A stretch of DNA of 64,000 nt from an uncultured Actinomycetes bacterium (lineage in GTDB: Bacteria > Actinomycetota > UBA4738 > HRBIN12). Position 1 is the first letter of the stretch. Each line of letters starts with the position of its first letter. Under the pieces are notes generated by a model. It saw only the letters and a program-made list of their open reading frames with translations, was not told the DNA's origin and did no database searches. Below, one piece after another: positions 35,542 through 54,885 of this stretch. Where the stretch lies: assembly GCA_963700855.1 (NCBI GenBank), contig CAVOYV010000008.1, positions 93,255 to 157,254 of the forward strand. Direction: 5' to 3'. The translations under genes were made by a program, and so were the position numbers.

Positions 35542-36708
35542 TCAGATGGCGGAGGCCGTTCGCTGCGGCCCCGACGTGCGGTGGTCTGCGTCGACGGCCC
35601 GCAGCGTGCGCTCGTACCGACCCGCAGAGGCTCGAACGATGCCGCGGAGCTCGAGTCGGACCAGGGCGGCTACGGCCGCCGGGGTCTTCATGCCCGCCGC
35701 CCTCGCGATCGTCTCGGGGAGCATCGGAGCCACCAGGGCGGCGAGCACGGAGCGCTCGTCGTCGGGGAGCCCGACCGGCGTGACGACCGGCAGGGCGGAC
35801 GGGTCGAATCCGAGGTCCTCGAGGAGATCCCACCCGTCGCGGATCAAGATGGCGCCGTCTCGGATCAGCGCGTGCGGCGTGGCCGACAAGGGACTGGTCA
35901 CCGAACCGGGGACCGCGAACACGTCGAGACCGAGGTCAACCGCGTGCTCGGCGGTGATCTGCGTCCCGCTCCGCTCGCGTCCCTCCACGACCACCACGCC
36001 GCGCGAGAGCGCCGCGATCAGCCGATTGCGGGCGGGGAAGCGCCAGGGCTCCGGGGGAAACCCTGGGGGGTACTCGCTCACCAGCGTCCCCGCGCCCGCG
36101 AGGAGGTCGCGGAAGAGTCCTGCGTTCGTGCGAGGATGCAGCACGTCGATACCCGATCCCAGGACCGCAACCGTTCGTCCGGCCGCGTCGAGGGCGCCCC
36201 GATGCGCCGCGGCGTCGATCCCGAGCGCGCCACCGCTGACCACCCCCACACCTGTCATGGCGAGCGTGAGGCCCATCGCCGTCGCGACCTCCCGACCGGT
36301 GACCGTGGGCCGGCGTGCACCGACGACGGCGATCCGCTGCTCCAGCGGCTCGAGCGCCGCGCCACGGACGAACACCCCCACGGGAGGATCGGCGAGCCGG
36401 GTGAAGGCCGGCCAGTAGTCGACGTCGCCCGGGACCGCGAAGCGAGCCTTCGCCATCCGGAGGTCGTCCCAGATCCGGATCGGACCCGTGGCCTCCAGGT
36501 ACGCGCGGTCGTTGTCGCTGCCCGCCGCACCGACGACGATCGCCCGCAGGCATGCCGAGGCCGACCCCTCCCGCCACGCGAGCGCCCGGACCGCTCGCGG
36601 GCTGATCCCCTGAAGGCACGCGAGCATCAACGCGGCCTCTCGGTCGGCCGACGCCTGCCCGAACCCATCGGGGAACCCCGGGGGAAGTTCCGCCAGGTCA
36701 GCCGGCAC
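35542..36708 (-). CDS. dprA: DNA processing protein DprA
   Basis: Within ORF 35542..37008. GTG 36708 (VPADLAEL) chosen as start. Rossmann-like core VVSGGALGIDAAAHRGAL...FPARNRLIAALS and a C-terminal winged helix. Confidence 0.88.
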   Translation of the reverse strand: MPADLAELPPGFPDGFGQASADREAALMLACLQGISPRAVRALAWREGSASACLRAIVVGAAGSDNDRAYLEATGPIRIWDDLRMAKARFAVPGDVDYWPAFTRLADPPVGVFVRGAALEPLEQRIAVVGARRPTVTGREVATAMGLTLAMTGVGVVSGGALGIDAAAHRGALDAAGRTVAVLGSGIDVLHPRTNAGLFRDLLAGAGTLVSEYPPGFPPEPWRFPARNRLIAALSRGVVVVEGRERSGTQITAEHAVDLGLDVFAVPGSVTSPLSATPHALIRDGAILIRDGWDLLEDLGFDPSALPVVTPVGLPDDERSVLAALVAPMLPETIARAAGMKTPAAVAALVRLELRGIVRASAGRYERTLRAVDADHRTSGPQRTASAI

Positions 36709-38233
36709 GGGCGAGCCCTTCCCGGTCGTCGAACGCCGCACGGAAGGAGAGCGCCTCCACGACGTGCGCGGCGCGCACGTATCCGTCGCCGCCGAGGTCC
36801 GCGATCGTGCGCGCCACCTTGAGCACCCGATCGAACCCCCGGCCGGTGAGCGCCATCGTCTCGACCGCCCGAGCCAAGACGTCGTCGGCGTCATCCGACA
36901 ACTGCACGACCCGGCGTGCCACCGGACCCGGCAGGAACGCGTTGCAGGCGAAACCGATACCGCCGGTGCGGGCTCGCTGGCGTTCTCGAGCGGCCAGGAC
37001 GCGGGCACGCACGACCGCAGAGGGCTCGCCGTCGGCCGCCCCCAACAGCTCGTCCTTCGTGAGACGGGGTACGGCGAGGCGGAGATCGATCCGGTCGAGC
37101 AACGGGCCGGACAGCTTCTGACGGTAGCGCTGGATCTGGTCGGAGCGGCATACGCACGACCTGACCGGATCGCCGTCGAAGCCGCACGGACAGGGGTTGG
37201 CCGCCGCGACCAACATGAACCTGGCCGGGAAGGTCACCGCTCCCGTGGCCCTGGCCACGACGATACGGCCGTCTTCGAGGGGCTGACGGAGCGATTCGAT
37301 CGCGTCGCGTCGGAACTCCGTCAGCTCGTCCAAGAAGAGCACCCCGTGATGCGCAAGGCTCGCCTCCCCGGGACGCAGCGAGGTGGAGCCTCCTCCCAGG
37401 AGGCCGGCGGTCGAGATCGAATGATGAGGTGCGCGGAAGGGACGGGTCCGAAGCAGGCCGCGGCCGGCGAGCAGTCCGGCGACCGAGTGCAGCTGGGTGG
37501 CCTCCAGCGCCTCGTCGTGCGACAGTCCCGGCAGGATCGTCGGGAGGCGCCGGGCCAGCATCGTCTTGCCGGCACCCGGGGAGCCGGCCATCAGGAGGTT
37601 GTGCCCGCCGGCGGCAGCGATCTCGAGCGCCCGACGGGCACCTTCTTGACCTCGCACCTCCGCGAGATCGACGTCGGGTGCGTGATGCGGGTCGTCGACC
37701 GGCTCGATGCGCTGCGGCGTCCACCGTCCGCGCAGGAAGTCCATCACCTCCGCGAGGGTGGCGACCGGCACGACCTGGAGGCCCTCGACCTCGACCGCCT
37801 CGGCGGCGTTGGGGGCGGGCACGACCACCGAGGCCGCGCCCCGTCGGGCCGCCGCGATCGCCGCCGAGATCACGCCGGGCGTGGTGAGGACCTCACCCTT
37901 GAGCGACACCTCGCCGAAGAAGACCACCCCCGCCAGGGCCCGCGCAGGCACCTGTCCTGTGGCGGCGAGCACGGACACGGCGATCGGGAGATCGAGCCCG
38001 GGACCTTCCTTCCGCAGGTTGGCAGGCGCGAGGTTGACGACGATCCGACGGAGCGGCCACTCGCCGCCCGCGTGCTCGACGGCGGGACGGATCCGGTCGC
38101 GGCCGTCGGCCACCGTGGCTCCCGGCAGACCGGTCACCGTCAACGAGGGGAGTCCACGGCCGACGAACGCCTCGACCGTGACCGGATACCCGCCGACCCC
38201 GACCACCGTCACCCCGGTCACCCGTCCGTACAT
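36698..38233 (-). CDS. comM: YifB/ComM family Mg-chelatase-like AAA+ ATPase
   Basis: 511-aa ORF with a Lon-protease-like N-domain, Walker A GSPGAGKT, FLDELTEF, and the C-terminal Mg-chelatase subunit ChlI-like domain. Confidence 0.93.
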   Translation of the reverse strand: MYGRVTGVTVVGVGGYPVTVEAFVGRGLPSLTVTGLPGATVADGRDRIRPAVEHAGGEWPLRRIVVNLAPANLRKEGPGLDLPIAVSVLAATGQVPARALAGVVFFGEVSLKGEVLTTPGVISAAIAAARRGAASVVVPAPNAAEAVEVEGLQVVPVATLAEVMDFLRGRWTPQRIEPVDDPHHAPDVDLAEVRGQEGARRALEIAAAGGHNLLMAGSPGAGKTMLARRLPTILPGLSHDEALEATQLHSVAGLLAGRGLLRTRPFRAPHHSISTAGLLGGGSTSLRPGEASLAHHGVLFLDELTEFRRDAIESLRQPLEDGRIVVARATGAVTFPARFMLVAAANPCPCGFDGDPVRSCVCRSDQIQRYRQKLSGPLLDRIDLRLAVPRLTKDELLGAADGEPSAVVRARVLAARERQRARTGGIGFACNAFLPGPVARRVVQLSDDADDVLARAVETMALTGRGFDRVLKVARTIADLGGDGYVRAAHVVEALSFRAAFDDREGLARAG

Positions 38234-38331
38234 GCGCGTGACGCTACGGGGAACGCCTCGCTCGTTCCGTGACGCCCGTCACATCGAGCGAGCGACACCC
38301 GATGTCTCGACGCTCGGGCTGCGCCGGAACG

Positions 38332-38688
38332 TCAGAACGCGTCCTCGAACAGCTCGACGGTGGCCGAGCCATCGTGGCGGAGCCATACGCTCGCGACATC
38401 GAACCGGACCCTGGGCGCATGGAGACCCCGCTGGAGCAGGAAGACCTCGGCGACCGAGCGCACCTTCCGCTGCTTCCGCGCGTCCACGGCCTCGAACCCG
38501 CCACCGAACGTCCCGCCTCGGCGGGTCTTCACCTCGCATACGACCACGGTGTCCTCACGCCCGAGGACGAGATCGAGCTCACCGACCGAGCACCGCCAGT
38601 TCCGCGCGAGCAACCGGAATCCGCGTTGGAGGTACAGCTGTTCCGCGGCGTGCTCCCCGAGCGTGCCGGTCCGGGACCGTGCGTCCAT
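38332..38688 (-). CDS. yraN: YraN family (UPF0102) endonuclease-like protein
   Basis: 118-aa ORF with GEHAAEQLYLQRGFRLLARNWRCSVGELDLV and VVCEVKTRR. Confidence 0.9.
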   Translation of the reverse strand: MDARSRTGTLGEHAAEQLYLQRGFRLLARNWRCSVGELDLVLGREDTVVVCEVKTRRGGTFGGGFEAVDARKQRKVRSVAEVFLLQRGLHAPRVRFDVASVWLRHDGSATVELFEDAF

Positions 38689-38749: not shown

Positions 38750-39058
38750 TCAGGCCGACGGCGCGTCCGGGATCGTCGTCTCGTCACGCCGGAGCTCCTC
38801 GACGTTGACGTCGCGGCGGGTCATGACCCGAACGTTCGACACGAACCGGGCTGGACGGAACATGTCCCAGACCCATGCGTCCTGCAGCTCGACCTGGACC
38901 CAGCCGTCGTCCGCCTTGGTGATGTCGACGCGGTTCGCCAGGTAGAAGCGACGCTCGGTCTCGATCACGAAGGTGAACATCGGCAGGACGTCCCGGTACT
39001 CCCGGTAGAGCTCGAGCTCACGCTCTTCCTCGAAGCGCTCGATGTCGTCGTCCATCAT
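38750..39058 (-). CDS. DUF2469 protein
   Basis: 102-aa ORF with FEEERELELYREYRDVLPMFTFVIETERRFYLAN. This is an actinobacteria-specific family, conserved next to rnhB. Confidence 0.88.
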   Translation of the reverse strand: MMDDDIERFEEERELELYREYRDVLPMFTFVIETERRFYLANRVDITKADDGWVQVELQDAWVWDMFRPARFVSNVRVMTRRDVNVEELRRDETTIPDAPSA

Positions 39059-39741
39059 GAACGCACCATCGTCTCAGACGGGCTCGTCGATCGGCCGAGT
39101 CCCGGCAACGCGACCTGGCCGACCCCGGAGAACGACAACCTGTGCACCGGCGTGGGGCCGTGTCGGTCCAGCGCGTCCCAGTGGTCGGGGGTGCCGTACC
39201 CCTTGTTCTCGGCGAACCCGAAGCCCGGATAGCGTTTGTCGAGCGTTCGCATGATCCGATCTCGCGTCACCTTCGCGACGATCGACGCTGCGGCGATCGC
39301 CGCGGTGACCGCGTCGCCCTTCTTCACCCCGAGCGAGGGGCAGGGCATCCTCGCCACGGGGAACCCGTCGGTGAGCGCGTAGTCGGGGCACGGGTCGATC
39401 GCCTTCACGCACCGACGCAGGAGCGCGAGGTTGCTCCGGTGGAGCCCACGCGCGTCCAGGACCGAAGGCTCGATCTTGCGGACGGCCACCTCGCAGTCCT
39501 CCACGATCCGTGCGTACTGCTCCTCTCGCTGGGCGGGCGTGAGGAGCTTGGAGTCCCGGATCCCCAGGCGGTCGAAGCCATCGGGCAGCACCACGGCGGC
39601 CGCGACGAGTGGGCCGGCGAGCGCCCCGCGGCCGGCCTCGTCGACGCCCGCGATCCGGCGGAACCCGCGTGCCCGAAGGAGAGCCTCGTAGCGATCGAGG
39701 TCGTCCGTGGCTACAACCCTCCCCAGTGCCCCGGCGGCCAT
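39055..39741 (-). CDS. rnhB: ribonuclease HII
   Basis: 228-aa ORF with GVDEAGRGALAGPLV, DSKLL and ASIVAKVTRD. Confidence 0.95.
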   Translation of the reverse strand: MAAGALGRVVATDDLDRYEALLRARGFRRIAGVDEAGRGALAGPLVAAAVVLPDGFDRLGIRDSKLLTPAQREEQYARIVEDCEVAVRKIEPSVLDARGLHRSNLALLRRCVKAIDPCPDYALTDGFPVARMPCPSLGVKKGDAVTAAIAAASIVAKVTRDRIMRTLDKRYPGFGFAENKGYGTPDHWDALDRHGPTPVHRLSFSGVGQVALPGLGRSTSPSETMVRS

Positions 39742-40415
39742 ACGATCACGAACGCCCTCCCGATCACCCGGTCGACCGGCACGAACCCGACGCCGCCCTC
39801 CTCCGGCTCGAGCCGGGAGTCCCCCGAGACGAGCCGGTTGTCACCCAACACGAACAGCATGCCATCGGGCACCGTCACGGGACCGTAGGAGCGGGTGTCT
39901 TCCTCGGCCGCCAGGTACGGCTCGTCGATCGCCTCGCCGTTCACGTACAGCTGGCCCCGGCGGATCTCCACCACATCGCCGGGGAGTCCCGCGACCCGCT
40001 TGATGAAGTCCTCGTCCTCCGGCTGGGCGACCCCGATCCCCTCGGCGAGCCACCGCAAGGCGCCCGATACGGGACCACGTTCGTGCGGCGCCGGATCGGG
40101 ATCGGCGAACACGACGACGTCGCCGCGTTCGATGTCGCCGAACCGGTAGCAGAAGCGGCAGACGAGGACGCGGTCGCCGCGTACCAGGGTCGGCTCCATC
40201 GACTCCGATGGGATGTAGAAGGCCTGGACCAGGAAGGTCTTGACGACGATCGCGATGACGAGCGCGATCACGATCAAGATCGGGAGCTCGCGCCAGAACT
40301 TCCCTCGATGCCCGTCGTCCGCGTGGCGGGTGGCTCGGGACGCGACGACGGGGTCCTCGGATCCGGGGTCGGGGATAGGGGCCGGGTCGACGGCGTCTGG
40401 CTGCCGGTCGGCCAC
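39711..40415 (-). CDS. lepB: signal peptidase I
   Basis: 234-aa ORF with a TM helix, then IPSESMEPTL, RGDVVVF and VLGDNRLVSGDSR. Confidence 0.95.
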   Translation of the reverse strand: MADRQPDAVDPAPIPDPGSEDPVVASRATRHADDGHRGKFWRELPILIVIALVIAIVVKTFLVQAFYIPSESMEPTLVRGDRVLVCRFCYRFGDIERGDVVVFADPDPAPHERGPVSGALRWLAEGIGVAQPEDEDFIKRVAGLPGDVVEIRRGQLYVNGEAIDEPYLAAEEDTRSYGPVTVPDGMLFVLGDNRLVSGDSRLEPEEGGVGFVPVDRVIGRAFVIVWPPGHWGGL

Positions 40416-40420
40416 GCGGG

Positions 40421-41026
40421 TCAGGCCTCGGCCTTCTCCTCGCCGGCGCTCGCCGCCGGCTCGTCGGTGGCCGACTCCTCGGTGGCCGGCTCGTCGGTGG
40501 CTGGCTCGTCGCTGGAGGGCTCGTCCGTCACCTCGGCCGCGTCCACGACGTCGGCCTCGACCCCGGCTGCCTCGGCGTCCACCGCAACCTCCTCGGTCTC
40601 TGCCTCGTCGTGCGCCGCCTCAGCCTCGGCCTCGGCGGCTGCATCGGCGGCGGCGGCTTCCATCGCGGCGAGCTTCGCGTCGTCGATGCGGCGCTCCTTG
40701 ATCCGCGCCTTCTTCCCGCGGAGGTCGCGGAGGTAGTAGAGCTTCGCCCGGCGAACGCGGCCGCGCTGGACGAGCTCGAGTTTCGCGATCGATGGCGAGT
40801 GGACGGGGAACGTCCGCTCCACGCCGACGCCGAACGAGATCTTGCGGACGGTGAACGTCTCGCGGATGCCACCACCCGAGCGCCGGATCACGACACCTTG
40901 GAACACCTGCACGCGCTCACGGTTCCCCTCCACCACGCGGACATGCACCTTCACGGTGTCGCCGGGGCGGAAATCCGGGAGATCCGTGCGCAGGAACGGC
41001 TGCTCGATCAGATCGGTCGTGTTCAT
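40421..41026 (-). CDS. rplS: 50S ribosomal protein L19 with ~85-aa acidic C-terminal extension
   Basis: 201-aa ORF. An L19 core ([29 protein letters not shown]) is followed by an Ala/Glu/Asp-rich tail with [20 protein letters not shown] repeats. Confidence 0.95.
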
Positions 41027-41053: not shown

Positions 41054-41743
41054 TCAGTCGCCGCCCGACCGCTCCTCGAGCAGGTCCGGACGGTTCCGCA
41101 GGGTCTTCTCGCGGGCCGCCTGGGCCCGCCAGCGCTCGATCTCTCCGTGGTGACCCGACAGCAGCACGTCGGGGACCCGCATCCCGCGGAACTCTGCCGG
41201 GCGTGTGTAGTGCGGGTGATCGAGGAGCGCTGGGTCGGAGAACGAATCCTGACGGTGCGACTCCTCCTTGCCGATCACGCCGGGGATCAGCCGTGTCACC
41301 GCCTCGATCAGGACGAGCGCGGGGAGCTCTCCCCCCGAGAGCACGTAGTCGCCGATCGAGACCTCCTCGGCAGGGAGACCCTCGATCACGCGCTCGTCGA
41401 AGCCCTCGTAGCGGCCGCAGAGCACCGTGAGGTGCGGCTCCGCGGCAAGCTCCACGACCCGTGCCTGGTCCAGACGGCGACCGGCCGGCGACATCGCGAG
41501 GACCCGTCCCCGATCGGGATCGAGCGACTCCACCGCCGCGAAGACCGGCTCGGGCTTCACCACCATCCCCGGACCGCCGCCGAACGCCTCATCGTCGACC
41601 GTCCGGTGGCGGTCCGTGCTCCAGTCCCGCAGGTCGTGCACCCGCACCTCGACGAGACCCGCATCGATCGCGCGGCCGAGCAGGCTCTCCGACAGCGGCC
41701 CCGCGACGATCGTGGGGAACAGCGAGAACACGTCGATCAGCAC
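41054..41743 (-). CDS. trmD: tRNA (guanine37-N1)-methyltransferase
   Basis: Within ORF 41054..42382. GTG 41743 (VLIDVFSLFP) is the start. Motifs VLCGRYEGFDERV and GDYVLSGGELPA. The 213-codon upstream extension is Arg/Pro-rich junk. Confidence 0.95.
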   Translation of the reverse strand: MLIDVFSLFPTIVAGPLSESLLGRAIDAGLVEVRVHDLRDWSTDRHRTVDDEAFGGGPGMVVKPEPVFAAVESLDPDRGRVLAMSPAGRRLDQARVVELAAEPHLTVLCGRYEGFDERVIEGLPAEEVSIGDYVLSGGELPALVLIEAVTRLIPGVIGKEESHRQDSFSDPALLDHPHYTRPAEFRGMRVPDVLLSGHHGEIERWRAQAAREKTLRNRPDLLEERSGGD

Positions 41744-41850
41744 GCCGCCGAGGCTACCGGAGCCACCACGCTCACGCTGCCCGATGATCGTGCGCTTGCC
41801 ACGCGCCCGCTTCGAGGTCAGTATCCGCCGGTCCGAACGGAACGAGAGAG

Positions 41851-44138
41851 GTGGGCGTGGAGTACCTGATCCTTGCGGGCGTCGTGGCCGCCGCGATCGT
41901 GATCGGCCGCGACATGCTCCTGCAGCGGCGTCTCGAGCGCGACCGGATGGACGCGTACGGCATCCTCGCTGATCGCTTGCGCTCCCCGGCGACGGGGCTC
42001 GACGTCGGCGCTCTCCTCCCGTCCGGGATCCATGCCCCCACCCGTGAGTCCACGGACCCGTGGGATGCCGCCGAGGATGCGCTCGATATCGAGACCTTCC
42101 GACCCACGCTTCGACCTGACGCCGAGATCGCCGTCTTCCGGCTCCGATGGGGGGACGACTACGCGATGGCCTGCGGTCCCGACCGCATCCGGCACTTCCA
42201 GCTCGAGATCTGGGAGGCCGAGCTGCTGCAGCGGATGGACGGGTCGCGGACGGTCGGTGAGCTGATCGTCGACCACCTCGGGCGTAGCGGCGACCTCGAC
42301 GCCGCCGGCGTGCTGGGGCTGATCGAGACGCTCCGACTGGACGGCTTCTTCGAGCCGGGGGCCCCCGTCGACGTGGACGCACTCGTGCAGGCGCGGATGG
42401 ACCCGAGCACCACGGGCCGCCGGAAGATCCGGGAGTTCCTCAAGAGCCTTCAGCTGTCCTGGCACGGTGCGGATCGCCTGATGGAGCGCCTCTACGACGG
42501 AGGGTTCAAGCTCTTCTTCCGCCCCCCGTCATCGTGGCGGCCGTGCTCCTGGCGGTCGTGGGCGTTGCGGCGTACGTGTCGGTGCTCACGTCGGGAAGGT
42601 TCACCCTCGTGCTCAGCAACCCGCCCGCCCAGGCGGCGATCCTCATGGTGCTCGGGCTCGTGCTCACCGCCGCCCACGAGCTGGGCCACGCGCTCGTCCT
42701 CACCCACAACCGTCGCCGCGTGGGTTCGGCGGGGTTCATGCTCTACTACGGCTCGCCGGCGTTCTACGTGGACGCCTCGGACGGGCTGATGTTGCCGGCA
42801 GGCCCGCGGATCGCCCAGGCTGCGGCCGGTCCCTTCGCCGAGCTGGTGCTGGCGGGGATCACCTCGATCGCGCTGTTCGTGTTCCCCGAGTCCGCCGTAG
42901 CGCCGCTGCTGTTCAAGTTCGCGTTCCTGAACTACTACGTGATCATCCTCAACCTGATCCCGCTCCTCGAGCTCGACGGCTACTGGATCTTGTCGGACGC
43001 GATCCAGGTCCAGGACCTGCGGCCCCGCTCGCTCGCCTTCGTGCAGCGGGAGATGTGGCGCAAGCTCCGTCGTCGTGAGGGATTCACGATCCAGGAGATC
43101 GGCTTCGGGCTGTACGGGACCGTCGGGCTTGCGTTCACCGTGGTCTCGCTCCTGTGGAGCGCGTACTACTGGCGCGAGGTTACCGGCACGCTGCTCATCG
43201 ATCTCTGGGAGATGGGGACGTGGGCCCGGCTCCTGCTGGTCGCGCTGATCCTGTTCATCGCCGGGCCGATCGTCCGCGCTGCGATCACGACCGGGCGGGC
43301 GATCGGACGGAGGGCGCGCGCGCTCTGGCGGCGGATCGTGTTCCGTTTCGAGATGCGCTGGCGGGTCGAGGCCGCGGAGCTGATCGACGCCCTTCCCGCG
43401 TTCGACGACCTGCCCGTCGATATCCTCAACGACCTCGCGGGCCGCGCCGGGCTGCGGACGATCCCACGCGGCCACGTGGTGTTCCATCGCGGTGACGACG
43501 CCGACAGCTTCTACGTGATCCGCCGCGGCCGGGCCGTGATCGAGGACGACGACCCCGATACGGGCGACACGCGGGTGATCTCGACCCTGACCCGGGGCGA
43601 CTCGTTCGGCGAGCTCGGCTTGCTCAATAGGAGTCCTCGATCGACCACGATCCGCGCGGCCGACGACCTGGAGCTCTTCGAGGTCGATCGGCCGACCTTC
43701 GACCGCCTGTTGGCGCAGCTGATCGACGTCCCCGACTTCGCGCCCACGATGCAGGCCTTCGCGGAGCTGAAGCAGCTACCGCCGTTCCGAACCTCGACGT
43801 TCGAGGAGCTCGCCGACGTGCTCGAGCATGGCGGATGGCTCTCCGCCGCCCCCGGCCACGCGTTCGTGGAGCAGGGCGAGCCCGGGGATGCCTTCTACGT
43901 CGTGGGCTCGGGGCAGGTCACGGTCCTCGCGGATGGGCAGGAGGTGGCCGTCCTGGGGCCGGGGCAGCACTTCGGCGAGGTAGCCTTGCTCGAGGACGTG
44001 CCGCGGACCGCGAGCGTCGTCGCCCGGACACCGGTGCGGGTCTTCCGGCTGGACCGTGAGGGGTTCACCTCCATCGTGGCGGACGCGTTCCAACGGGGAG
44101 CGCTCCGGCGTTCGGCGGACCGCACGTGGCAGCACTGA
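41851..44138 (+). CDS. PqqD/RRE-like + M50 (site-2 protease) + 2x cyclic-nucleotide-binding domain membrane protein; one frameshift in a C6 run
   Basis: ORFs 41851..42789 and 42534..44138 join at 42522-42527 (..KLFFRPP/VIVAAVLLAVVG). Zinc motifs HELGH and NLIPLLELDG are present. Both cNMP phosphate-binding cassettes are present (FGELGLL..PRSTTIRA and FGEVALLEDVPRTASVVA). The N-terminal segment IWEAELLQRMDGSRTVGELIVDHL...LIETLRLDGFF is PqqD-like. Confidence 0.75.
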
Positions 44139-44168
44139 TCACCTGAGGAACGGAGCGAGAGGAGCAGG

Positions 44169-44381
44169 ATGGACTGCTGGCACTGCAAGCGGAGCGCGGT
44201 GGGGACCTGCAGGTTCTGCGGCCGAGGGGTGTGCGAGGACCACGTCAAGACGAAGCCGTTCATCCTCGACCTGTTCCGTGGCACGGACCACACGCGAGCG
44301 CTCGTGGTGGAAGACGCCCTGTTCTGCGGCGCGTGCTCCCCACGGCCGGACCCGTTGGATCTGCCCGAACTCGACGTGTGA
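44169..44381 (+). CDS. DUF2180-like cysteine-rich (zinc-ribbon) small protein
   Basis: 70-aa ORF MDCWHCKRSAVGTCRFCGRGVCEDH...LFCGACSP, with three CxxC pairs plus C/H. GAGGAG RBS. It starts 30 nt after the M50 gene. Confidence 0.6.
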   Translation: MDCWHCKRSAVGTCRFCGRGVCEDHVKTKPFILDLFRGTDHTRALVVEDALFCGACSPRPDPLDLPELDV

Positions 44382-44392
44382 CGTGCATCACA
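44377..44392. promoter_or_regulatory. perfect CRP/FNR-type palindrome TGTGA-N6-TCACA
   Basis: TGTGACGTGCATCACA read directly. It overlaps the stop codon of the DUF2180-like gene. Confidence 0.65.
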
Positions 44393-44398
44393 TCTCCG

Positions 44399-44414
44399 TG
44401 TGTCATACGTCACC
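44399..44414. promoter_or_regulatory. second, imperfect CRP-type box TGTGT-N6-TCACC
   Basis: TGTGTCATACGTCACC. Its centre is 22 bp (two helical turns) from the first box. Confidence 0.45.
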
Positions 44415-44536
44415 GTCATCCACGTGATGAACGACACCGGAAGATGGTGACCGCCGATACCGCGACATCACCACGCGTCGTGCATCATGACATCGAGAGC
44501 GGGCCGAGGGGGCCCGCAGACCCAGGAGGCAGCGAG

Positions 44537-44680
44537 ATGGCGGACAAGAAGATCCAGCCGAAGGCTCCGGAGAAGACCGAGGCTGCGGCCGGCGCCCGCG
44601 AGAGCGCCGAGCGCGAGACACTGCGCAAGCAGAAGCGGAAGACCGTCAAGCGCGCGCAGCTCCGCAAGAGCGTCAGGTAA
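44537..44680 (+). CDS. 47-aa lysine/arginine-rich small protein, unknown function
   Basis: CCAGGAGG lies 7 nt upstream of the ATG. The product is MADKKIQPKAPEKTEAAAGARESAERETLRKQKRKTVKRAQLRKSVR. A strong terminator follows. An in-frame upstream ATG at 44444 would give 78 aa. Confidence 0.5.
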   Translation: MADKKIQPKAPEKTEAAAGARESAERETLRKQKRKTVKRAQLRKSVR

Positions 44681-44702
44681 CGGTAGATCTGCCAGCAGTC
44701 GA

Positions 44703-44740
44703 GAAGGGCCCCGGGCGGTTGCCCGGGGCCCTTCTGTGTG
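44703..44740 (+). terminator. intrinsic terminator
   Basis: Perfect 14-bp stem GAAGGGCCCCGGGC-GGTT-GCCCGGGGCCCTTC followed by TGTGTGT. Confidence 0.8.
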
Positions 44741-44824
44741 TCCGGGGTCGCGTCGCCCGCGCCCTTTGATAGGGTCCGCGGCGTGACGCGATCCTCCCCC
44801 CGACCCCCCGACCTTGCCCTCGTG

Positions 44825-45490
44825 ATGACCGGCACAGCCTTCCTGGCCCGCGCGCCGAAGAGCCGCGTCGCGGCGCTCGTCGACCAGGGGCGCGTCCACC
44901 GGTTCCGCCGCGGCACCTACGTCTCCCATCAGGGCGACCCCGCCGATGAAGTGTTCTTCCTGATCGAGGGCAAGGTGGAGATCAGCTCGGTGTCCCCGAC
45001 CGGGTCCCGCGTGCTCCATGCCGCGGTCGACATGCCGCAGTTCCTCGGAGAGCTGGGTGTCCTCGGCGGGCTCCCGAGGGCGGCCGATCTGCTTACGCTC
45101 GAGGACTCCGACATCTGGACGGCCGACGCGGAGGCCTTCCTCGGGTTCGTCACCTCGGAACCGTCGTCCGCCCGCGAGGTGCTACGGGCACTCGCGCGAC
45201 AGGTTCACGAGCACCAAGCGTTCGCGGACGATCTCCTCTACCTCGATCTGAAGGGGCGCGTCGCGAAGCGGCTGCTCCAGATGGGGACGCCGTCGCTCTC
45301 GGACCTGCCCGCCGCGGGCACGACCGTGGGACCGATCACCCACGCGGACCTCGCGAGCCTGTGCGGCGGGAGCCGGGAGAACGTCACCCGGACCCTCAAG
45401 GACTTCGAGCGACGAGGGCTGATCGCTCGCGACGCGAACCGCTACGTCCTCAAGAAGGTCCCGGCGCTCGCGAAGATCGCCGATCTGTAG
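44825..45490 (+). CDS. Crp/Fnr family transcriptional regulator (cNMP-binding + HTH)
   Basis: ORF 44738..45490. The start is set at ATG 44825 (MTGTAFLARAP). cNMP domain FLGELGVLGGLPRAADL. The HTH is ITHADLASLCGGSRENVTRTLKDFERRGLI, with the R-E-x-x-x-R recognition pattern. Confidence 0.85.
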   Translation: MTGTAFLARAPKSRVAALVDQGRVHRFRRGTYVSHQGDPADEVFFLIEGKVEISSVSPTGSRVLHAAVDMPQFLGELGVLGGLPRAADLLTLEDSDIWTADAEAFLGFVTSEPSSAREVLRALARQVHEHQAFADDLLYLDLKGRVAKRLLQMGTPSLSDLPAAGTTVGPITHADLASLCGGSRENVTRTLKDFERRGLIARDANRYVLKKVPALAKIADL

Positions 45491-45493
45491 GCC

Positions 45494-46012
45494 TCACGTC
45501 TCCTCGTCGGGGACGGTGAGACCCGGGACGTCGCGGACGACGATCCTCTTCGCCGTGACGTCCACGTCGATCAGCACGTCCTTGAGTGCGGGGACGAGGG
45601 TCTCAACGCCGACCGCGTCGACGGCGACCCACAGGTCGTTCGCGGGGTTCGCGATCACCTCGCGTACCTCCCCCAGGTCCCGCCCCGATTCGGTCATGAC
45701 CCGGCATCCCTCGAGGTCGTGCGGCCACCACTCGTCCTCGCCGAGGTCCGGGAGCCACGAGACGGGGACCACGAGCACCGCGCCGCGCAGGGCTTCGGCG
45801 GCCGTCCGGTCGGCCACCTCGTCGAACGTGACGGTGAGCTTCACACCCTGCATGCGGGCGGCCCGCACGGTGAGCGACCGGCCCTGCTCCGTGAACACGA
45901 CGGCACCGGGTACCCAGCGGTCTGGGTTGTCGGAGCGGTTCTGCACGGCGACCTCGCCGCGCAACCCGTGGGCCCTGGTCACGAGGCCGACGACGATCGT
46001 CGGCTCGTCCAC
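45494..46012 (-). CDS. rimM: 16S rRNA processing protein RimM
   Basis: Within ORF 45494..46105. GTG 46012 lies 1 nt after the KH-protein stop. The N-terminus reads VVGLVTRAHGLRGEVAV, and a PRC barrel C-terminus is present. Confidence 0.9.
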   Translation of the reverse strand: MDEPTIVVGLVTRAHGLRGEVAVQNRSDNPDRWVPGAVVFTEQGRSLTVRAARMQGVKLTVTFDEVADRTAAEALRGAVLVVPVSWLPDLGEDEWWPHDLEGCRVMTESGRDLGEVREVIANPANDLWVAVDAVGVETLVPALKDVLIDVDVTAKRIVVRDVPGLTVPDEET

Positions 46013-46013
46013 C

Positions 46014-46244
46014 TCAGTCCTCGAAATCGACGCGCGCGGCGACGTGCTGACGCCCGGCGGCGGCCCGAACCACCTGGCGGATCGCCTTGGCCGTGCGGCC
46101 GCCACGGCCGATCAGCTTGCCCAGCTCGCCGTCGGAGACCCGGACGACGTACACGGGGCCGCGATCGTCGAAGGACTCCTGGACGTCGACGGCGTCGGGC
46201 TCGTCGACCAGCTCGCGACAGAGGAACTCGACGAGCTCCTTCAC
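46014..46244 (-). CDS. KH domain RNA-binding protein (YlqC/KhpA-like)
   Basis: 76-aa ORF with GKLIGRGGRTAKAIRQV. It sits between rpsP and rimM. Confidence 0.9.
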   Translation of the reverse strand: MKELVEFLCRELVDEPDAVDVQESFDDRGPVYVVRVSDGELGKLIGRGGRTAKAIRQVVRAAAGRQHVAARVDFED

Positions 46245-46245
46245 G

Positions 46246-46704
46246 TCAGGCCTCGGCGCTCTCCTCCGCCGGCGTCTCCGCCTCGGCGGCCTCGGGCTCA
46301 GCAGGGGCCGGCTCGTCGGCGGGGGCAGGTGGCTCGGCCGCTGCCTTCGCAGCCTCGGCCGCCTTCGCCTGCGCCTTCTTCGAGACCTTCTCCTTCAGGA
46401 CCCGCTCGGGCTTGGGTCCCCCCGCCACCTTGCCGGCGGACGGGCGCTCGGCCACGAACGTGTCCCAGATGCCCACCTTCGACATCAGGTTGCGCACCTG
46501 GCTCGACGGCTGGGCACCCACCCGGAGCCAGTGGAGAGCGCGCTCCTCGTCGATCTCGATCAAGGAGGGGTCGCTCAGCGGGTGGTACTTGCCGATCGCC
46601 TCGATGAAACGACCGTCGCGGGGGGCCCGCTGGTCGGCCACCACGACACGGTAGAAGGGTCGCTTGTTCGACCCCATCCGACGCAGCCGGATCCTCGTCG
46701 CCAT
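46246..46704 (-). CDS. rpsP: 30S ribosomal protein S16 with Ala/Pro/Glu-rich C-terminal extension
   Basis: 152-aa [38 protein letters not shown] is followed by ~60 aa of a K/A, then E/P/A tail. Confidence 0.95.
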
Positions 46705-46731: not shown

Positions 46732-48075
46732 CTAGCGCTTCGGGAGCTTCGTGGGCATCTTCATGCCCGGAACCTTCTTGCCGCCCATCATCGTCCGCAT
46801 CATCTTCCTCGCACCCTCGAAGTCCTTCAGGAGCGAGTTGACGTCGGCGGTCGTGACCCCGGATCCGTTCGCGATCCGCAGGCGGCGCGACCCGGAGATG
46901 ATAGCGGGATTCCGACGCTCGGCGAGGGTCATCGACAGGATGATCGCCTCGGCGCGGGCCATCTCCCCCTCGTCGACGGCCTCGGACAGCTCCTTCATCG
47001 CGCTGCGACCCCCCGGCATCCCGGGCATCATCTTCAGCAGATCCTGGATCGGACCGAGCTTGCGCATCTCGCGAAGCTGCGTCAGGAAGTCCTCCAGGTT
47101 GAACTGCCCTTTGAGCATCTGTTCGGCCGCGGCGACGGCGGCGTCCTGATCGACCTTGTCCTGGGCCTTCTCGATCAGGGTCAGCACGTCGCCCATCCCG
47201 AGGATCCGGCTCGCCATCCGGTCGGGATGGAACGGCTCGAGGTCGTCGACCTTCTCCCCCGTGCCCACGAAGAACACCGGGCGGCCGGTGACGTGGGTCA
47301 TCGACAGGGCGGCGCCGCCGCGGGCGTCGCCGTCGAGCTTCGTGAGGATGAACCCGGTCGTGTCGACCTCACGCATGAACTCGCGCGCCTGAACGACGGC
47401 ATCTTGACCGGTCATCGCGTCGCAGGCCATCAGGACGTGCACGGGTCTGGTGACGTCTTTGATCTTGCGCGCCTGCTTCATCATCTCGGGGTCGACGTGC
47501 AGCCGGCCCGCGGTGTCGACGATCACCACGTCGGCGCCGGTGCGCTGAGCTTCCTTCACCCCGTTCTTCGCGACGCGGATCGGATCGCGGCCCTCCGACC
47601 AGACCGGCACGCCGATCTCGCGGCCGAGGGTCCGCAGCTGCTCGACGGCCGCGGGACGCTCGAGGTCGGCGGCGATCAGCAGCGGCCGCTTGCCCTTCGC
47701 CTTCAGATGCTTCGCGAGCTTCGCGCAGGCGGTCGTCTTCCCCGAGCCCTGGACGCCCGCCATCATCACGACGGCCGGGGCCGCACCCGTCAGGGTGAAC
47801 GGTCGGTGCTCGCCTCCGAGCGTGACCGTGAGCTCCTCGTCCATGACCTTCACGACCTGCTGGGCCGGCGAGAGGCTCTTCATGACCTCCTCGGACAGGG
47901 TCCTCACACGCACGCGGGAGAGCAGGTCGTCGACGACCTCGACGGCGACGTCGGCCTCGAGCAGCGCGGTGCGGATCTCGCCGAGGGCATTGTCGACCTG
48001 CTTGGGATGCAGCTTGCCCCGCTGGCGGAGCTTCTTGAAGACGCCATCCAGGCGATCGGTGAGCGTGTCGAACAT
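46732..48075 (-). CDS. ffh: signal recognition particle protein Ffh
   Basis: Within ORF 46732..48873. The true start is MFDTLTDRLDGVFKKLRQRGKL (ATG 48075). It has GVQGSGKTT, DTAGRL and a Met-rich M domain. Confidence 0.96.
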   Translation of the reverse strand: MFDTLTDRLDGVFKKLRQRGKLHPKQVDNALGEIRTALLEADVAVEVVDDLLSRVRVRTLSEEVMKSLSPAQQVVKVMDEELTVTLGGEHRPFTLTGAAPAVVMMAGVQGSGKTTACAKLAKHLKAKGKRPLLIAADLERPAAVEQLRTLGREIGVPVWSEGRDPIRVAKNGVKEAQRTGADVVIVDTAGRLHVDPEMMKQARKIKDVTRPVHVLMACDAMTGQDAVVQAREFMREVDTTGFILTKLDGDARGGAALSMTHVTGRPVFFVGTGEKVDDLEPFHPDRMASRILGMGDVLTLIEKAQDKVDQDAAVAAAEQMLKGQFNLEDFLTQLREMRKLGPIQDLLKMMPGMPGGRSAMKELSEAVDEGEMARAEAIILSMTLAERRNPAIISGSRRLRIANGSGVTTADVNSLLKDFEGARKMMRTMMGGKKVPGMKMPTKLPKR

Positions 48076-48151
48076 AGATGGGATGGGGGTGTGGTCGGCT
48101 TCGGCGTGAGGGTCACGTCGGGGCCCTAGTGTATCGGCCGGGCCGACAGAG

Positions 48152-50014
48152 ATGAGGTGGGATACGACGGAGATGGTCACGGAGCGTCCGATCGACGACG
48201 CGCGCCGCCTCGAGGCGCTGCTGATCACCGTGCGCTGGCTCGTCGCGGCGTTCGGCGTGATCCAGGTCGGGTTCGCGGTGCGTGACTCCGGCGCCGATCG
48301 CCCCTTCGCGTTGATCCTCGGGGTCGCCCTCGTCGTCGGCCTCCTCGTGGGGAACCTGCTCCTGTCGCGCGCGCTCCCGAAGGCGACCGATGCCGGACGC
48401 CTGCGGGTGCTCGGGCTCGTCGCGTTCGGTCTGGACGCGGCGGCGATCCTCGGATTGATCTGGCTCGCCTCTGACGGCCCCGCGGACCCGGTCTGGGTCG
48501 TCGGGTACCTGCTGCCCCTCGAGGGCGCCGCGCGATGGGGTCTGCCTGGGGCGCTGGTCGGAGCCGCCCTGTTCCTGGGTGGCGAGGTCGCGCGCGAGCT
48601 CGAACTGCAGGAGACCGCCCCGCGCAAGACGGTCGGCCCGCCCGTGATCGCGTTCCGGGCAGGCATGGCGCTCGTCGTGGGCATGGTCACGGGCGCGTTC
48701 GCCTCGTCCGTGCGACGCGAGGCCGCCCGGGCGCAGGAGCGTGCGACACAGGTCGAGATCGCCCTCGCCGACGCCGAAGCGGCCGCATCCCGCGAACGCC
48801 AGGCCCGCGGTGAGGTCGCCGCGTTCCATGCCGCGATCCTCACGGAGCCCGAGCGCGACCAGCTGGAGAGCACGCTGCAGGAGACCGCCGACGCGATCGC
48901 ACGGGAGCTGGGCGCGCAGGCCCTGGGCCTGCTCGTGCGCCGGCAGGGTTCCGCCGGTGAGGTGGCGTACGCGGCGCTGGGGGTTCACGGCGACCCGGGC
49001 TACCTCCGCCGCGATCTGCTGTCGACCGTGTCGGATCCCGTCGGTGCGGCGGCCGAGGAGGGTCAGCCGATCCTGGCCGGCCGCGACGTCGTCGCGCCGA
49101 TGCTCGTGCGCGGCGAGATCGTGGGGGCCCTGCACGAACGCGTGACAGAGGGGCCTCCGCCCGACGACGACCGCCTCCTGCTGGTCGACCGGCTCGCCGA
49201 CCAGCTCGGGCTCCTGCTCGAGGCGGCGCGCCTCCGCGCCGACCAGGAGGACACGGTCCGTCGCCTCCGTGAGCTCGACGAGATGAAGACCGACTTCGTC
49301 GCGATCACGAGCCATGAACTGCGCACCCCTTTGTCCGGCATCCGCGGCTTCGTCGACATGCTCCGTCGCCGCGGCGACGAGCTTCCGACCGCCGAACGCG
49401 AGGAGTACCTGGATATCGTCATGGTCCAGACGGACCGGCTGATCGGGCTCGTCGACGATCTCCTGGTGGTCTCGCGGATCGAATCCGGGGCGCTCACCCT
49501 CGAGCCAGAGGAGACGGAGATCTCGCCGTTCCTCGAGGACCTCGTTCGGACGCTCGGCGACGACGCCGACCGGGTGGTGATCTCGGGCGGAGACGGGGCA
49601 CCGGCGCGGATCGTGGTGGACGCCGGCCGGCTCGCGCAGATCCTCACGAACCTCGTCCACAACGCGTTGAAGTTCTCGACGGCACCGTCGCCGGTCGGGC
49701 TCACGTGGTCGACCCCCGTGGAAGGGGTAGTCGCCTTCGAGGTCGCCGACGAGGGAGCCGGGATCGACGCCGAGGAACTGGAGCGGATCTTCGAGCGCTT
49801 CCACCAGGGCGAGCGCTCGATGGCTCACACGGAGGGGTTCGGACTCGGCCTCTACATCACGAAGCTGTTGACCGAGGCGATGGGAGGTTGGATCGACGTG
49901 ACCTCGAGCGTGGGAGAGGGCACCACGTTCACGGTCACGCTCCCGTCGAGCCGGACCCTCCCAGCACCCGCGCGACCGCCCGCAGCAGCACGGCAGGACC
50001 GAACGGCTTCGTGA
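48152..50014 (+). CDS. membrane GAF-domain sensor histidine kinase
   Basis: 620-aa ORF with N-terminal hydrophobic helices and a GAF-like middle region. H-box ITSHELRTPLSGI, N-box LTNLVHNALKF, and G-boxes DEGAGI and GFGLGLYI are present. Confidence 0.88.
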   Translation: MRWDTTEMVTERPIDDARRLEALLITVRWLVAAFGVIQVGFAVRDSGADRPFALILGVALVVGLLVGNLLLSRALPKATDAGRLRVLGLVAFGLDAAAILGLIWLASDGPADPVWVVGYLLPLEGAARWGLPGALVGAALFLGGEVARELELQETAPRKTVGPPVIAFRAGMALVVGMVTGAFASSVRREAARAQERATQVEIALADAEAAASRERQARGEVAAFHAAILTEPERDQLESTLQETADAIARELGAQALGLLVRRQGSAGEVAYAALGVHGDPGYLRRDLLSTVSDPVGAAAEEGQPILAGRDVVAPMLVRGEIVGALHERVTEGPPPDDDRLLLVDRLADQLGLLLEAARLRADQEDTVRRLRELDEMKTDFVAITSHELRTPLSGIRGFVDMLRRRGDELPTAEREEYLDIVMVQTDRLIGLVDDLLVVSRIESGALTLEPEETEISPFLEDLVRTLGDDADRVVISGGDGAPARIVVDAGRLAQILTNLVHNALKFSTAPSPVGLTWSTPVEGVVAFEVADEGAGIDAEELERIFERFHQGERSMAHTEGFGLGLYITKLLTEAMGGWIDVTSSVGEGTTFTVTLPSSRTLPAPARPPAAARQDRTAS

Positions 50015-50330
50015 GGTACTCGTCGGCGCCCAGGCGCATCGCCGACGCCCGACCCTCCTCGCCCTCGGCGGTCGCGACGACCACGCGGACGGCCGCGGTG
50101 GCCGGGTCGGCGCGGAGCTCCCGCAGGACCTCGGCACCGGTCACCCCGGGGATGTTGAGGTCGAGGACGACCAGGTCGGGCGGAGCGCTGCGGATCGCCT
50201 CGAGGGCGCTCGCCCCGTCGCCGACCTCAGCAACCTCGTAGCCCTCGGCCTCGAGGATCACGCGGACGGCACCTCGCATCGTCGGGTGGTCTTCGACGAG
50301 GAGCAGCCGCGCCCTGCTCACCTCGCCCAC
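49935..50330 (-). CDS. stand-alone CheY-like receiver protein
   Basis: 131-aa ORF with LLLVEDHPTMR, LVVLDLNIPGVTG and YLTKPF. Its 3' end overlaps the convergent kinase by 80 nt. Confidence 0.85.
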   Translation of the reverse strand: MGEVSRARLLLVEDHPTMRGAVRVILEAEGYEVAEVGDGASALEAIRSAPPDLVVLDLNIPGVTGAEVLRELRADPATAAVRVVVATAEGEEGRASAMRLGADEYLTKPFGPAVLLRAVARVLGGSGSTGA

Positions 50331-54300: not shown

Positions 54301-54818
54301 CGCCGGCGATGCTTCGCGATGCCGGCGGCCTCCTCGATGTACTTGCGTCGCTCCTCCGGCTTGGCCAGCAGCACTTCTTCGAGCTGACCCTGGCCGACCA
54401 CCGTGTGGAGGGCACGGCCGATCCCCGATTCGGACAGCAGTTCCTGAACGTCCATCAGGCGGACCACCTGTCCGCCGATCCTGTACTCGGACTCGCCGCT
54501 GCGGAAGATCGTGCGGCTGATCTCGATCTCGGTCAACGGCACCGGGATCTTGCCCTCGCCGTTGTCGATCACGAGCTTGACCTCGGCCATGCCGAGCGCG
54601 GGTCGCGACGGGGTGCCCGCGAAGATCACGTCGGCCATCTGTCCGCCCCGGAGCGCTCGGGGACCCTGCTCGCCCAGCGCCCAGCTGATCGCGTCGACCA
54701 GGTTCGACTTGCCCGAGCCGTTGGGACCGACGATCACGGACACGCCCGGGACGAACTCGAGCACCGTCTTGTCCGCGAACGACTTGAAACCGCGGATCGT
54801 GATCGACCGGAGGAACAT
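51370..54818 (-). CDS. smc: chromosome segregation protein SMC, reading frame broken once in the coiled coil
   Basis: ORF 52701..54818 is the N-terminal head (FKSFADKTVLEFVPGVSVIVGPNGSGKSN) plus coiled coil and hinge. ORF 51370..52749 is the coiled coil plus C-terminal head (LSGGERSLTAMAFLFAIF, FYLMDEVEPALD). The frames join near 52826-52832. Confidence 0.92.
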
Positions 54819-54885
54819 CGCGCGGATGCTAACAGGCGTGTGATTCGCTAGGCGGGAGGCGGGGCGAGGTCGTGGGACCCGCTCC

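Follow-up and report, generated by a model that had tools for sequence, protein, structure and literature searches.

The genes rimM and trmD are ordinarily contiguous in one operon, and the question raised here is what separates them in a 64,000-nt stretch of DNA from an uncultured Actinomycetes bacterium (assembly GCA_963700855.1, contig CAVOYV010000008.1, positions 93,255 to 157,254 of the forward strand), referred to below as the window. Between the rimM stop codon and the trmD start codon lie 3.75 kb of opposite-strand DNA with four plus-strand genes. They encode a membrane protease with a predicted RiPP (ribosomally synthesised and post-translationally modified peptide) recognition element (RRE) and two cyclic nucleoside monophosphate (cNMP)-binding domains, a 70-aa cysteine-rich protein (Cys70), a small basic protein and a Crp/Fnr-family regulator. 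An original prediction, made from the letters of the window, had rated this cassette as more probably a functional module than random filler, and as not obviously a recent foreign islet. We put the probability at roughly 0.5 that the cassette is an autonomous cNMP signalling module, which was fixed between trmD and rimM in one uncultured Actinomycetota lineage and has been vertically inherited since. In the window, of about 70% G+C content (GC), genes were chosen by third-position GC and then confirmed with Pfam; the cassette and its two flanks are laid out as follows.

41054-41743, minus: trmD, left flank, 229 aa (Pfam tRNA_m1G_MT, E=4e-64)
41744-41850: divergent intergenic region between trmD and the protease operon, 107 nt
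41851-44138, plus: protease gene with RRE, M50 and two cNMP_binding domains (Pfam, NCBIfam), interrupted by 1 nt in the window
44169-44381, plus: Cys70, 70 aa, seven Cys and one His, DUF2180-like
44377-44414: two CRP boxes, 22 bp apart, overlapping and following the Cys70 stop codon
44537-44680, plus: basic open reading frame (ORF) of 47 aa, with an AGGAGG Shine-Dalgarno sequence at 44524-44529
44702-44735, plus: perfect 15-bp GC hairpin, terminator-like, after the small ORF
44825-45490, plus: Crp/Fnr-family regulator (Pfam cNMP_binding, HTH_Crp_2 and Crp)
45494-~46012, minus: rimM, right flank (Pfam RimM and PRC_RimM)

The Pfam-based map bears out the four plus-strand genes that were said to split rimM from trmD, in an order that recurs on many independent contigs, far more than chance would give. 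It agrees also with the predicted junctions: 3 nt lie between the convergent stop codons of crp and rimM, and the divergent spacer measures 107 nt (113 nt if the start of the 99%-identical homologue P0001 applies). The order and identity of the genes had been described rightly, but in the window the protease gene falls into two reading frames, a 1-nt deletion having been missed. The size of TrmD, 229 aa, agrees with that of its relatives.

Conservation, positions and age of the cassette

Genomic contexts were retrieved by look-ups of the contigs encoding homologues and by screening one genome from each GTDB species, and nine window proteins were mapped by tblastn onto every locus. The four genes co-occur, with constant order and orientation, in about 45 Actinomycetota loci, and they were found in three kinds of position. 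Position A, with trmD on the minus strand, the protease, 70-aa, small-ORF (one or more) and Crp genes on the plus strand and rimM on the minus strand, is seen in every locus of the window's clade with both flanks visible, on about 25 independent contigs (L001, L003-L007, L013, L024, L025, L027, L029, L037, L041, L087-L095), over a range of protease identity from 86% to about 50%. At position B, represented by two metagenome-assembled genomes (MAGs; L008, L036), the cassette lies between rplS and trmD, and trmD and rimM are adjacent there. Position C comprises about 22 further Actinomycetota MAGs with the identical four-gene order elsewhere in the genome, where moaA is convergent downstream and a gene for a membrane or secreted protein seems to be co-operonic upstream of the protease gene. 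The four genes thus move as a unit among at least three genomic contexts. The co-occurrence that the original prediction had proposed to look for was found, with the protease, Cys70 and Crp genes together across the Actinomycetota loci and the protease-Cys70 pair also in Chloroflexota, and its view of the cassette as a functional module is borne out by this joint movement.

The protein encoded upstream at position C has 270-340 aa, a signal-peptide-like N-terminus and a C-terminal transmembrane segment, and its gene overlaps the start of the protease gene (L009 4973-5995; equivalents in L010, L011, L015, L017-L019, L021, L026). It gave no Pfam match and is not present in the window's clade. 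We also observed, in L051 (224-9189), a 1083-aa M50 homologue with two cNMP domains on the same strand as trmD-rplS-lepB, about 4.4 kb downstream of them and without a Cys70 gene; this may be another case, of separate origin, in which such a protease became associated with the trmD-rplS region.

As to age, the divergence of the cassette parallels that of the flanking housekeeping genes, and its GC (0.66-0.71) compares with 0.66-0.75 outside. The window contains no tRNA genes, and at the ends of the cassette we found neither terminal repeats nor an integrase. A 16-nt perfect direct repeat flanks the cassette at 41729-41744 and 45563-45578; both copies code for VLIDV, one at the N-terminus of TrmD and the other close to the C-terminus of RimM, and since relatives lack the repeat it is judged a chance match. 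We considered this repeat as a recombination scar and rejected it, since it is coding in both genes and specific to the window. The split of rimM and trmD is old and real, neither an artefact nor a recent insertion. The claim that the cassette is no recent foreign islet therefore stands, and a misjoin is excluded by the recurrence of the junctions in independent assemblies. Comparison of the rimM-trmD interval in related genomes, as had been proposed, gave a divided answer: the cassette is constant in the window's clade, but the position is held in that one clade only, a point that the original prediction had missed. Every carrier found is an uncultured bacterium of soil or sediment.

The protease and Cys70

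In the window the protease gene is divided between frame A (41851 to ~42525) and frame B (to 44138), which join only with a seventh C at 42522-42527. P0001, a 99%-identical protein from another sample, reads through this site. Over 3.3 kb, its contig L096 is 98.6% identical to the window in DNA, with 46 substitutions and a single indel, C7 versus C6. A further 1-nt lesion was observed in smc (51370-54893, minus), which lies in two frames with a 1-nt deletion near 52824-52827 relative to a related SMC, at a site not within a long homopolymer; this suggests that the window assembly contains indel errors. Because L096 has C7 and an intact gene, and because smc is frameshifted by 1 nt as well, the protease frameshift is probably an assembly error. 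A programmed frameshift was considered and rejected, as every relative is in frame. Once repaired, the protease has 762 aa; its homologues, likewise of about 760 aa, form at least 1287 sequence clusters, nearly all of them metagenomic and labelled Actinomycetota. The features of the gene are given below, with motif invariance judged on an alignment of 20 protease homologues.

42097-42360, plus: RRE (PqqD-like) domain (AlphaFold2 and Foldseek)
42522-42527, plus: C6 homopolymer, the frameshift site; C7 in intact relatives
42675-42689, plus: HELGH zinc-binding motif of the M50 core, invariant
42951-42980, plus: second M50 motif NLIPLLELDG, invariant
43392-44138, plus: tandem cNMP-binding domains (Pfam)
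43605-43658 and 43971-44024, plus: phosphate-binding cassettes FGELGLL..PRSTT and FGEVALL..PRTAS

The region N-terminal to the M50 core had no Pfam family match by sequence, and a profile of the RRE domain searched against PDB sequences returned only MecI (E=0.71). An AlphaFold2 model of the window's own ORF-A, with 64 homologues as input, gave a transmembrane helix followed by three strands and three helices (beta3-alpha3) at a predicted local distance difference test (pLDDT) score above 90, the strands at residues 92-96, 104-108 and 115-118 and the helices at 120-127, 135-146 and 151-163. The top Foldseek match of this domain was TbiB1 with its leader peptide (5v1u; probability 1.0, template-modelling score 0.60 on the target), and the other top matches were lasso B1 (6jx3) and TruD, CteB and TigE (4bs9, 5why, 8vpo). 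A Chloroflexia homologue (L056) matches Pfam PqqD (E=3e-4), and NCBIfam daptide_HExxH covers residues 112-466 of the protease (E=3e-47, 161.4 bits). As judged from the model, the N-terminal domain has a predicted PqqD-like RRE fold, and the RRE label given to the protease in the original prediction is upheld by the model topology, the lasso B1/RRE matches and the daptide_HExxH and PqqD hits.

The Pfam Peptidase_M50 score (24.8 bits) is below its cutoff (27.2 bits), and for this reason the M50 family is regarded as divergent here. H276, E277 and H280, as well as N368...D376 and G377, are invariant, so that HExxH and NxxPxxxLDG motifs stand in a polytopic membrane core, as in M50/site-2 proteases; hydrophobic segments span residues 218-483, with about six in the core. 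Because HExxH and NLIPLLxLDG are invariant, the core is predicted to be, and should be, catalytically competent. The cNMP_binding domains were found twice by Pfam (E=1e-42, 144 bits, above threshold), the FGE...PR[ST]A cassettes characteristic of PF00027 are invariant in both, and the best PDB sequence matches of the tandem region are the tandem cNMP-binding domains of PKG and PKA-R. An Arg-rich stretch follows the first transmembrane segment of the protease and, together with the approximately six core segments, suggests that the RRE and the cNMP domains are both cytoplasmic.

By family matches, the closest known relative of the protease is the daptide leader peptidase MpaP/DapP (NF041824), which likewise has an N-terminal RRE and then an M50 HExxH core and is homologous over the 112-466 span. 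In the daptide paper, an RRE fused N-terminally to a site-2 protease was proposed to remove the leader. The cassette protease differs from the daptide enzyme in an extra N-terminal transmembrane helix and two C-terminal cNMP domains. No MpaB/C/D/M or daptide precursor genes lie within 6-10 kb in any locus, and, in contrast to daptides, the cassette has no hydrophobic Thr-terminated precursors, the protease being paired with a putative zinc protein and Crp. A second comparison is offered by SpoIVFB of Bacillus subtilis, the M50 protease that acts on pro-sigma-K and has a nucleotide-sensing CBS domain at its C-terminus. Its substrate, which is no integral membrane protein, loses an N-terminal pro-sequence, and small partner proteins keep the enzyme in check. 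The likeness, drawn from general knowledge, lies in an M50 intramembrane protease with a cytoplasmic C-terminal nucleotide-binding regulatory domain. Unlike SpoIVFB, the cassette protease has cNMP instead of CBS domains and an RRE in addition, its partner is a soluble putative zinc protein and not membrane-bound BofA or SpoIVFA, and the module has no sigma factor. PKA-R and PKG share two consecutive cNMP domains with canonical phosphate-binding cassettes, whereas those of the cassette are fused to a bacterial membrane protease and have no kinase partner. A weak match links the protease cNMP domains also to cyc_nuc_ocin (TIGR03896), the 'bacteriocin-type transport-associated' cNMP proteins.

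Cys70 has invariant C3, C6, C14, C17, C22, H25, C53 and C56 and a C-terminal PRPDPxxLPELD motif, and its seven Cys and one His are candidate metal ligands. Its AlphaFold2 model (pLDDT 88.8) has zinc knuckles and a long beta-hairpin; a fold search returned no significant structural neighbour. Pfam DUF2180 (PF09947) matches the first 28 residues only (E=5e-4, 20.5 bits versus a cutoff of 22.2); some Cys70 homologues exceed the threshold, and NCBI names some of them DUF2180. The archaeal DUF2180 proteins, which are Cys-rich and of about 68 aa, share the N-terminal pattern CxxC-x7-CxxC-x4-C-x2-H with Cys70; only the bacterial Cys70 family has the beta-hairpin, the second CxxC and the tail PRPDPxxLPELD. 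We know of no function for DUF2180. Among 1.84 billion representative proteins, the Cys70 profile found only 165 relatives, nearly all stand-alone and of 40-110 aa. Domain fusions as Rosetta-stone evidence were considered and rejected, the long matches being frameshift chimeras.

In every Actinomycetota locus, 10-60 nt separate the Cys70 gene from the protease gene upstream of it. The pairing extends to most evaluable Chloroflexota loci, whose protease homologues have 1044-1141 aa; identity there stands at only about 30% for the protease, as against about 50% for Cys70. In L056, however, some 5.5 kb separate the two genes, which are on opposite strands, and in one locus, L060, the Cys70 gene follows a gene for a soluble protein with two cNMP domains and no protease domain. 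This gene order marks Cys70 as the predicted obligate downstream partner of the protease.

The small basic protein, the Crp paralogue and transcription of the locus

A homologue search with the 47-aa ORF gave only nine close matches (P0390-P0398), and the small-ORF family was recovered from locus DNA instead of by protein search. It is present in 35 loci and has an N-terminal motif MA[ED]KK[IV]xPKxP, a mid motif AAGAR or AATRV[ST]K and a tail of K/R-rich tandem repeats, whose unit (e.g. KKLSH, AKKTL, KRV, ETKR, ARN, TGRAGLKK) and number vary between relatives. Upstream of it in the window, the first box, TGTGACGTGCATCACA (44377-44392), is perfect and is the sole perfect CRP consensus in the 64 kb; the second, TGTGTCATACGTCACC, has 2 mismatches. 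Across the loci, the 200 nt upstream of small ORFs hold 2-5 boxes phased at 22-24 bp. When boxes with at most one mismatch were counted, 45 (22 perfect) were found in 7.4 kb upstream of small ORFs, as against 5 (none perfect) in the remaining 414 kb of locus sequence, which amounts to an approximately 500-fold enrichment, with at least one box in 33 of 34 loci. Where a locus has two small ORFs, a box stands ahead of each. Every small ORF is followed, within about 30 nt, by a perfect GC hairpin of 11-17 bp, and the hairpin sequences differ; the 5' region of the small ORF gave no significant RNA fold (z=-1.25). The small ORF is predicted to be a separately regulated monocistronic unit with its own boxes and terminator. 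The small basic ORF of the original prediction is therefore present, but the box array and the terminator that make it a regulated unit of its own had been missed.

In 46 of 47 loci the 450 nt preceding the protease gene hold no CRP box, nor does the trmD gap of the window. CRP control of trmD or of the protease operon was accordingly considered and rejected, the divergent region being free of boxes.

In a close relative we observed an orphan small-ORF unit away from the cassette (L097 1467-1890; L098 771-1194), flanked on one side by an amidohydrolase-like gene and on the other by a large regulator-like one. It consists of a 47-aa ORF, CRP boxes at -155 and -133 and a GC hairpin. Because this copy exists outside the cassette, the small-ORF family is multi-copy. 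Since the orphan copy keeps its boxes and hairpin and duplicated ORFs are each boxed, the box array, small ORF and terminator together would be a discrete regulon element.

The Crp gene has an alternative GTG start at 44738. Its product scores 63.6 bits for Pfam cNMP_binding, and the combination of this domain with HTH_Crp_2, with TGTGA-N6-TCACA boxes nearby, is that of the Crp/Fnr family. Among PDB sequences it is most similar to CRP of M. tuberculosis and GlxR of C. glutamicum, at 92 bits over 200 residues; because the match reaches only 92 bits, we regard the cassette Crp as a paralogue of the global CRP. It lacks the high identity expected of an Rv3676/GlxR orthologue, and its context is module-specific. 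The recognition helix RENVTR (45374-45391) retains R-E-x-x-x-R, and in E. coli CRP the Arg-Glu...Arg triad reads TGTGA. Domain architecture, this helix and the TGTGA-N6-TCACA boxes are thus shared with the global CRP (Rv3676, GlxR); the cassette differs in having boxes as phased arrays of 2-5, which in the sequence covered occurred solely at small-ORF promoters, and Ala for Ser/Thr in the phosphate-binding cassette of its Crp. From co-localisation we infer that the Crp paralogue binds the small-ORF boxes. Elsewhere in the window a near-consensus extended CRP box, CGTGACGCCCGTCACA, with 1 mismatch, was observed at 38268-38283 between a comM-like Mg-chelatase gene (36698-38233) and UPF0102/yraN (38332-38688), and it may be another target of the paralogue.

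In Chloroflexota the protease-Cys70 pair stands amid other cNMP genes: a Crp gene lies upstream in L044 and L050, a cNMP-SpoIIE phosphatase gene is present in L044, and L056 has an adenylate/guanylate cyclase gene immediately upstream. In L046 and L050, Cys70 is followed by perfect CRP boxes. A Pfam Frankia_peptide gene comes next in 3 of 5 evaluable Chloroflexota loci, after Cys70 in L050 (50.8 bits, above the cutoff) and L049, and directly after the protease gene in L056 (35-36 bits in the latter two); that of L050 is preceded by a perfect CRP box. This family is grouped among the leader domains of Nif11 type that RiPP precursors carry (PMC12353581). By analogy of position, the actinobacterial small basic protein would occupy this RiPP-precursor slot, and it has the conserved N-terminus and variable C-terminus seen in precursors. 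In contrast to the Chloroflexota module, which has a precursor of the Nif11/NHLP/Frankia_peptide kind, the actinobacterial small protein has no detectable leader similarity.

Because the cassette is opposite-stranded, trmD-rplS-lepB must use a promoter of its own, which is predicted to lie in the 107-nt divergent gap. The sigma-70 consensus had no match in 41744-41850, scans for sigma-70 sites and U-tract terminators found nothing, as expected at 70% GC, and Rfam gave no match at gathering thresholds across the window. At the other end, rimM transcription heads into crp with no terminator between them, and antisense interference between the two genes is possible. In several relatives we observed a called minus-strand ORF of 55-68 aa between trmD and the protease gene (L003 9652-9819; L004 7659-7865; L093 2137-2307; L094 1798-1968; L095 203-373), for which the gap of the window is too short. 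The flanking genes otherwise have the order of the rpsP-rimM-trmD-rplS cluster, in which the adjacency of rimM and trmD is absent here and across the window's clade.

39055-39741, minus: rnhB (Pfam)
39711-40415, minus: lepB (Pfam)
40421-41026, minus: rplS (Pfam)
46014-46244, minus: KhpA-type KH gene (Pfam)
46246-46704, minus: rpsP (Pfam)
46732-48150, minus: ffh (Pfam)

Two further observations concern this cluster. The ribosomal protein L19, the rplS product (40421-41026, minus; also L001, L003-L006, L087), has 183-201 aa in this clade, as compared with a typical length of about 115 aa. It bears a conserved, very acidic C-terminal tail of 70-90 aa with 24-30 D/E, which is intriguing next to a module encoding poly-cationic small proteins. 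Between ffh and ftsY, a histidine kinase gene (HisKA and HATPase_c; 48152-50014, plus) and an overlapping, convergent response-regulator receiver gene (49935-50330, minus) keep their position in L003-L005 and L093 and are a second conserved insertion in the signal recognition particle/ribosome cluster.

Proposed function, alternatives and significance

The cassette consists of three units: the protease-Cys70 operon, the boxed and terminated small-ORF unit, and the gene of the Crp paralogue. The best reading of this module is one of cNMP-gated peptide processing and transcription, in which a cNMP, probably cAMP, would be sensed twice. The Crp paralogue would bind the phased boxes cooperatively and so switch the small-protein gene, and the tandem cNMP domains would gate the protease, much as the nucleotide-binding CBS domain of SpoIVFB does. 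The RRE of the protease would capture a small cytoplasmic protein for cleavage at the membrane. By analogy with Chloroflexota, the small basic protein, as holder of the RiPP-precursor slot, is the favoured and most likely substrate, and Cys70 may act as an obligate adaptor or inhibitor, or may itself be the substrate.

Several observations weigh against this proposal. The small basic protein is hydrophilic, unlike known substrates of site-2 proteases and the daptide enzyme, and its unit also occurs unlinked from the protease gene, so that adjacency is not obligatory. The L060 locus hints that Cys70 pairs with a cNMP module and not with an RRE. Foldseek matched the RRE with modest E-values (7e-3 to 0.15), and the protease, at 161.4 bits, falls well short of the 300-bit equivalog cutoff of NF041824. 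With no modification enzymes or exporter in the cassette, it is not a canonical RiPP cluster, which has a precursor and a modifying enzyme and usually an exporter. The phosphate-binding cassette of the Crp paralogue reads PRAA, where Ser/Thr is usual, and the ligand of Crp is uncertain because of this replacement; it is also possible that the boxes are bound by a separate global CRP instead. Finally, the frameshift could be genuine in this strain.

The last of these points, carried further, would mean that the cassette is decaying here, the protease gene being a true pseudogene and the module non-functional in this genome. The C6 of the window, opposite C7 in the intact relative, and the split into two frames are what such decay would look like, but over 3.3 kb no other indel separates the window from a 98.6%-identical contig, the lesion falls at a homopolymer, both halves of the gene have high third-position GC and are otherwise lesion-free, and the 1-nt frameshift in smc points to assembly indels; we consider a pseudogene quite improbable. 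Far less credible still is the view that the four genes are mere neighbours, without any relation in function. None of the four has been characterised experimentally, which leaves room for this view, yet they have translocated jointly to three genomic contexts, CRP boxes are confined to the module (with 5 imperfect sites in 414 kb elsewhere in the loci), and all the larger products carry cNMP-binding domains. At the bottom of the scale stands a recently acquired mobile islet, or a misjoin at the junctions. The opposite strand, the interruption of a usually contiguous operon and the 16-nt perfect direct repeat (41729-41744 and 45563-45578) could be cited in its favour, but the junctions recur in more than 20 assemblies made independently, from various samples and with various assemblers, the GC of the cassette equals that of the backbone, tRNA genes (in the window) and terminal repeats or an integrase (at the ends) were not found, the repeat merely codes for VLIDV and is lost in relatives, and cassette and flanking genes diverge in step. 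This reading is effectively refuted.

A stronger competitor, which we hold to be possible though rather unlikely, keeps the module and divides it differently. The protease and Cys70 would form one device, for instance for cNMP-controlled release or degradation of Cys70, and the small protein would not be a substrate and would be a mere effector of the Crp regulon, e.g. a stress protein binding nucleic acids, ribosomes or polyanions. This fits the independence of the small-ORF unit, which is bounded by a terminator and has an orphan copy far from the protease gene, and it fits the fact that the partner conserved across phyla is Cys70 and not the small ORF. The soluble protein of L060 with two cNMP domains also precedes Cys70, the K/R repeat tails resemble histone-like tails, and L19 of the clade bears an acidic tail of 70-90 aa. 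On the other hand, an RRE implies peptide recognition, the corresponding slot in Chloroflexota holds a RiPP-type precursor, and the small ORF shows the pattern of conserved leader and variable core known from processed precursors.

In the most far-reaching reading, the module may represent a form of second-messenger-gated proteolytic maturation that has gone unrecognised, in which cAMP or cGMP induces small precursors and also opens an RRE-guided intramembrane protease. We advance this as speculation and regard it, taken as a whole, as unlikely. Induction would proceed through the dedicated Crp paralogue on phased box arrays. The protease, with its obligate two-zinc adaptor, would cut the conserved N-terminal leader and free hypervariable poly-cationic repeat peptides, and these might act on ribosomes, on nucleic acids or outside the cell. 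Fixation in the rpsP-rplS cluster together with an acidic-tailed L19 could reflect a link to translation.

To our knowledge, RRE-fused site-2 proteases have so far been known only as leader peptidases of daptides. In the full-text literature we found no description of an M50 protease with cNMP domains, of a function for DUF2180, of Franean1_4349 or of a rimM/trmD cassette with Crp. The parts of the module are known, namely RRE-site-2 protease leader peptidases, Crp regulators and cNMP-binding domains, and it is their combination with a zinc partner, phased box arrays, repeat-tailed small proteins and embedding in a ribosomal cluster that appears to be new. Because the carriers are all uncultured soil or sediment bacteria, the system has been invisible to model-organism genetics, and the module is small enough for heterologous reconstitution. 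The phased box arrays before a fast-evolving small basic protein offer a clean, testable regulon of a Crp paralogue. If the proposed gating is true, the cassette would provide direct second-messenger control of intramembrane proteolysis, of which the literature gave no description. For the lineage that carries it, the cassette means that even an operon among the most conserved in bacteria can stay split over long evolutionary time, forcing a new promoter for trmD-rplS.

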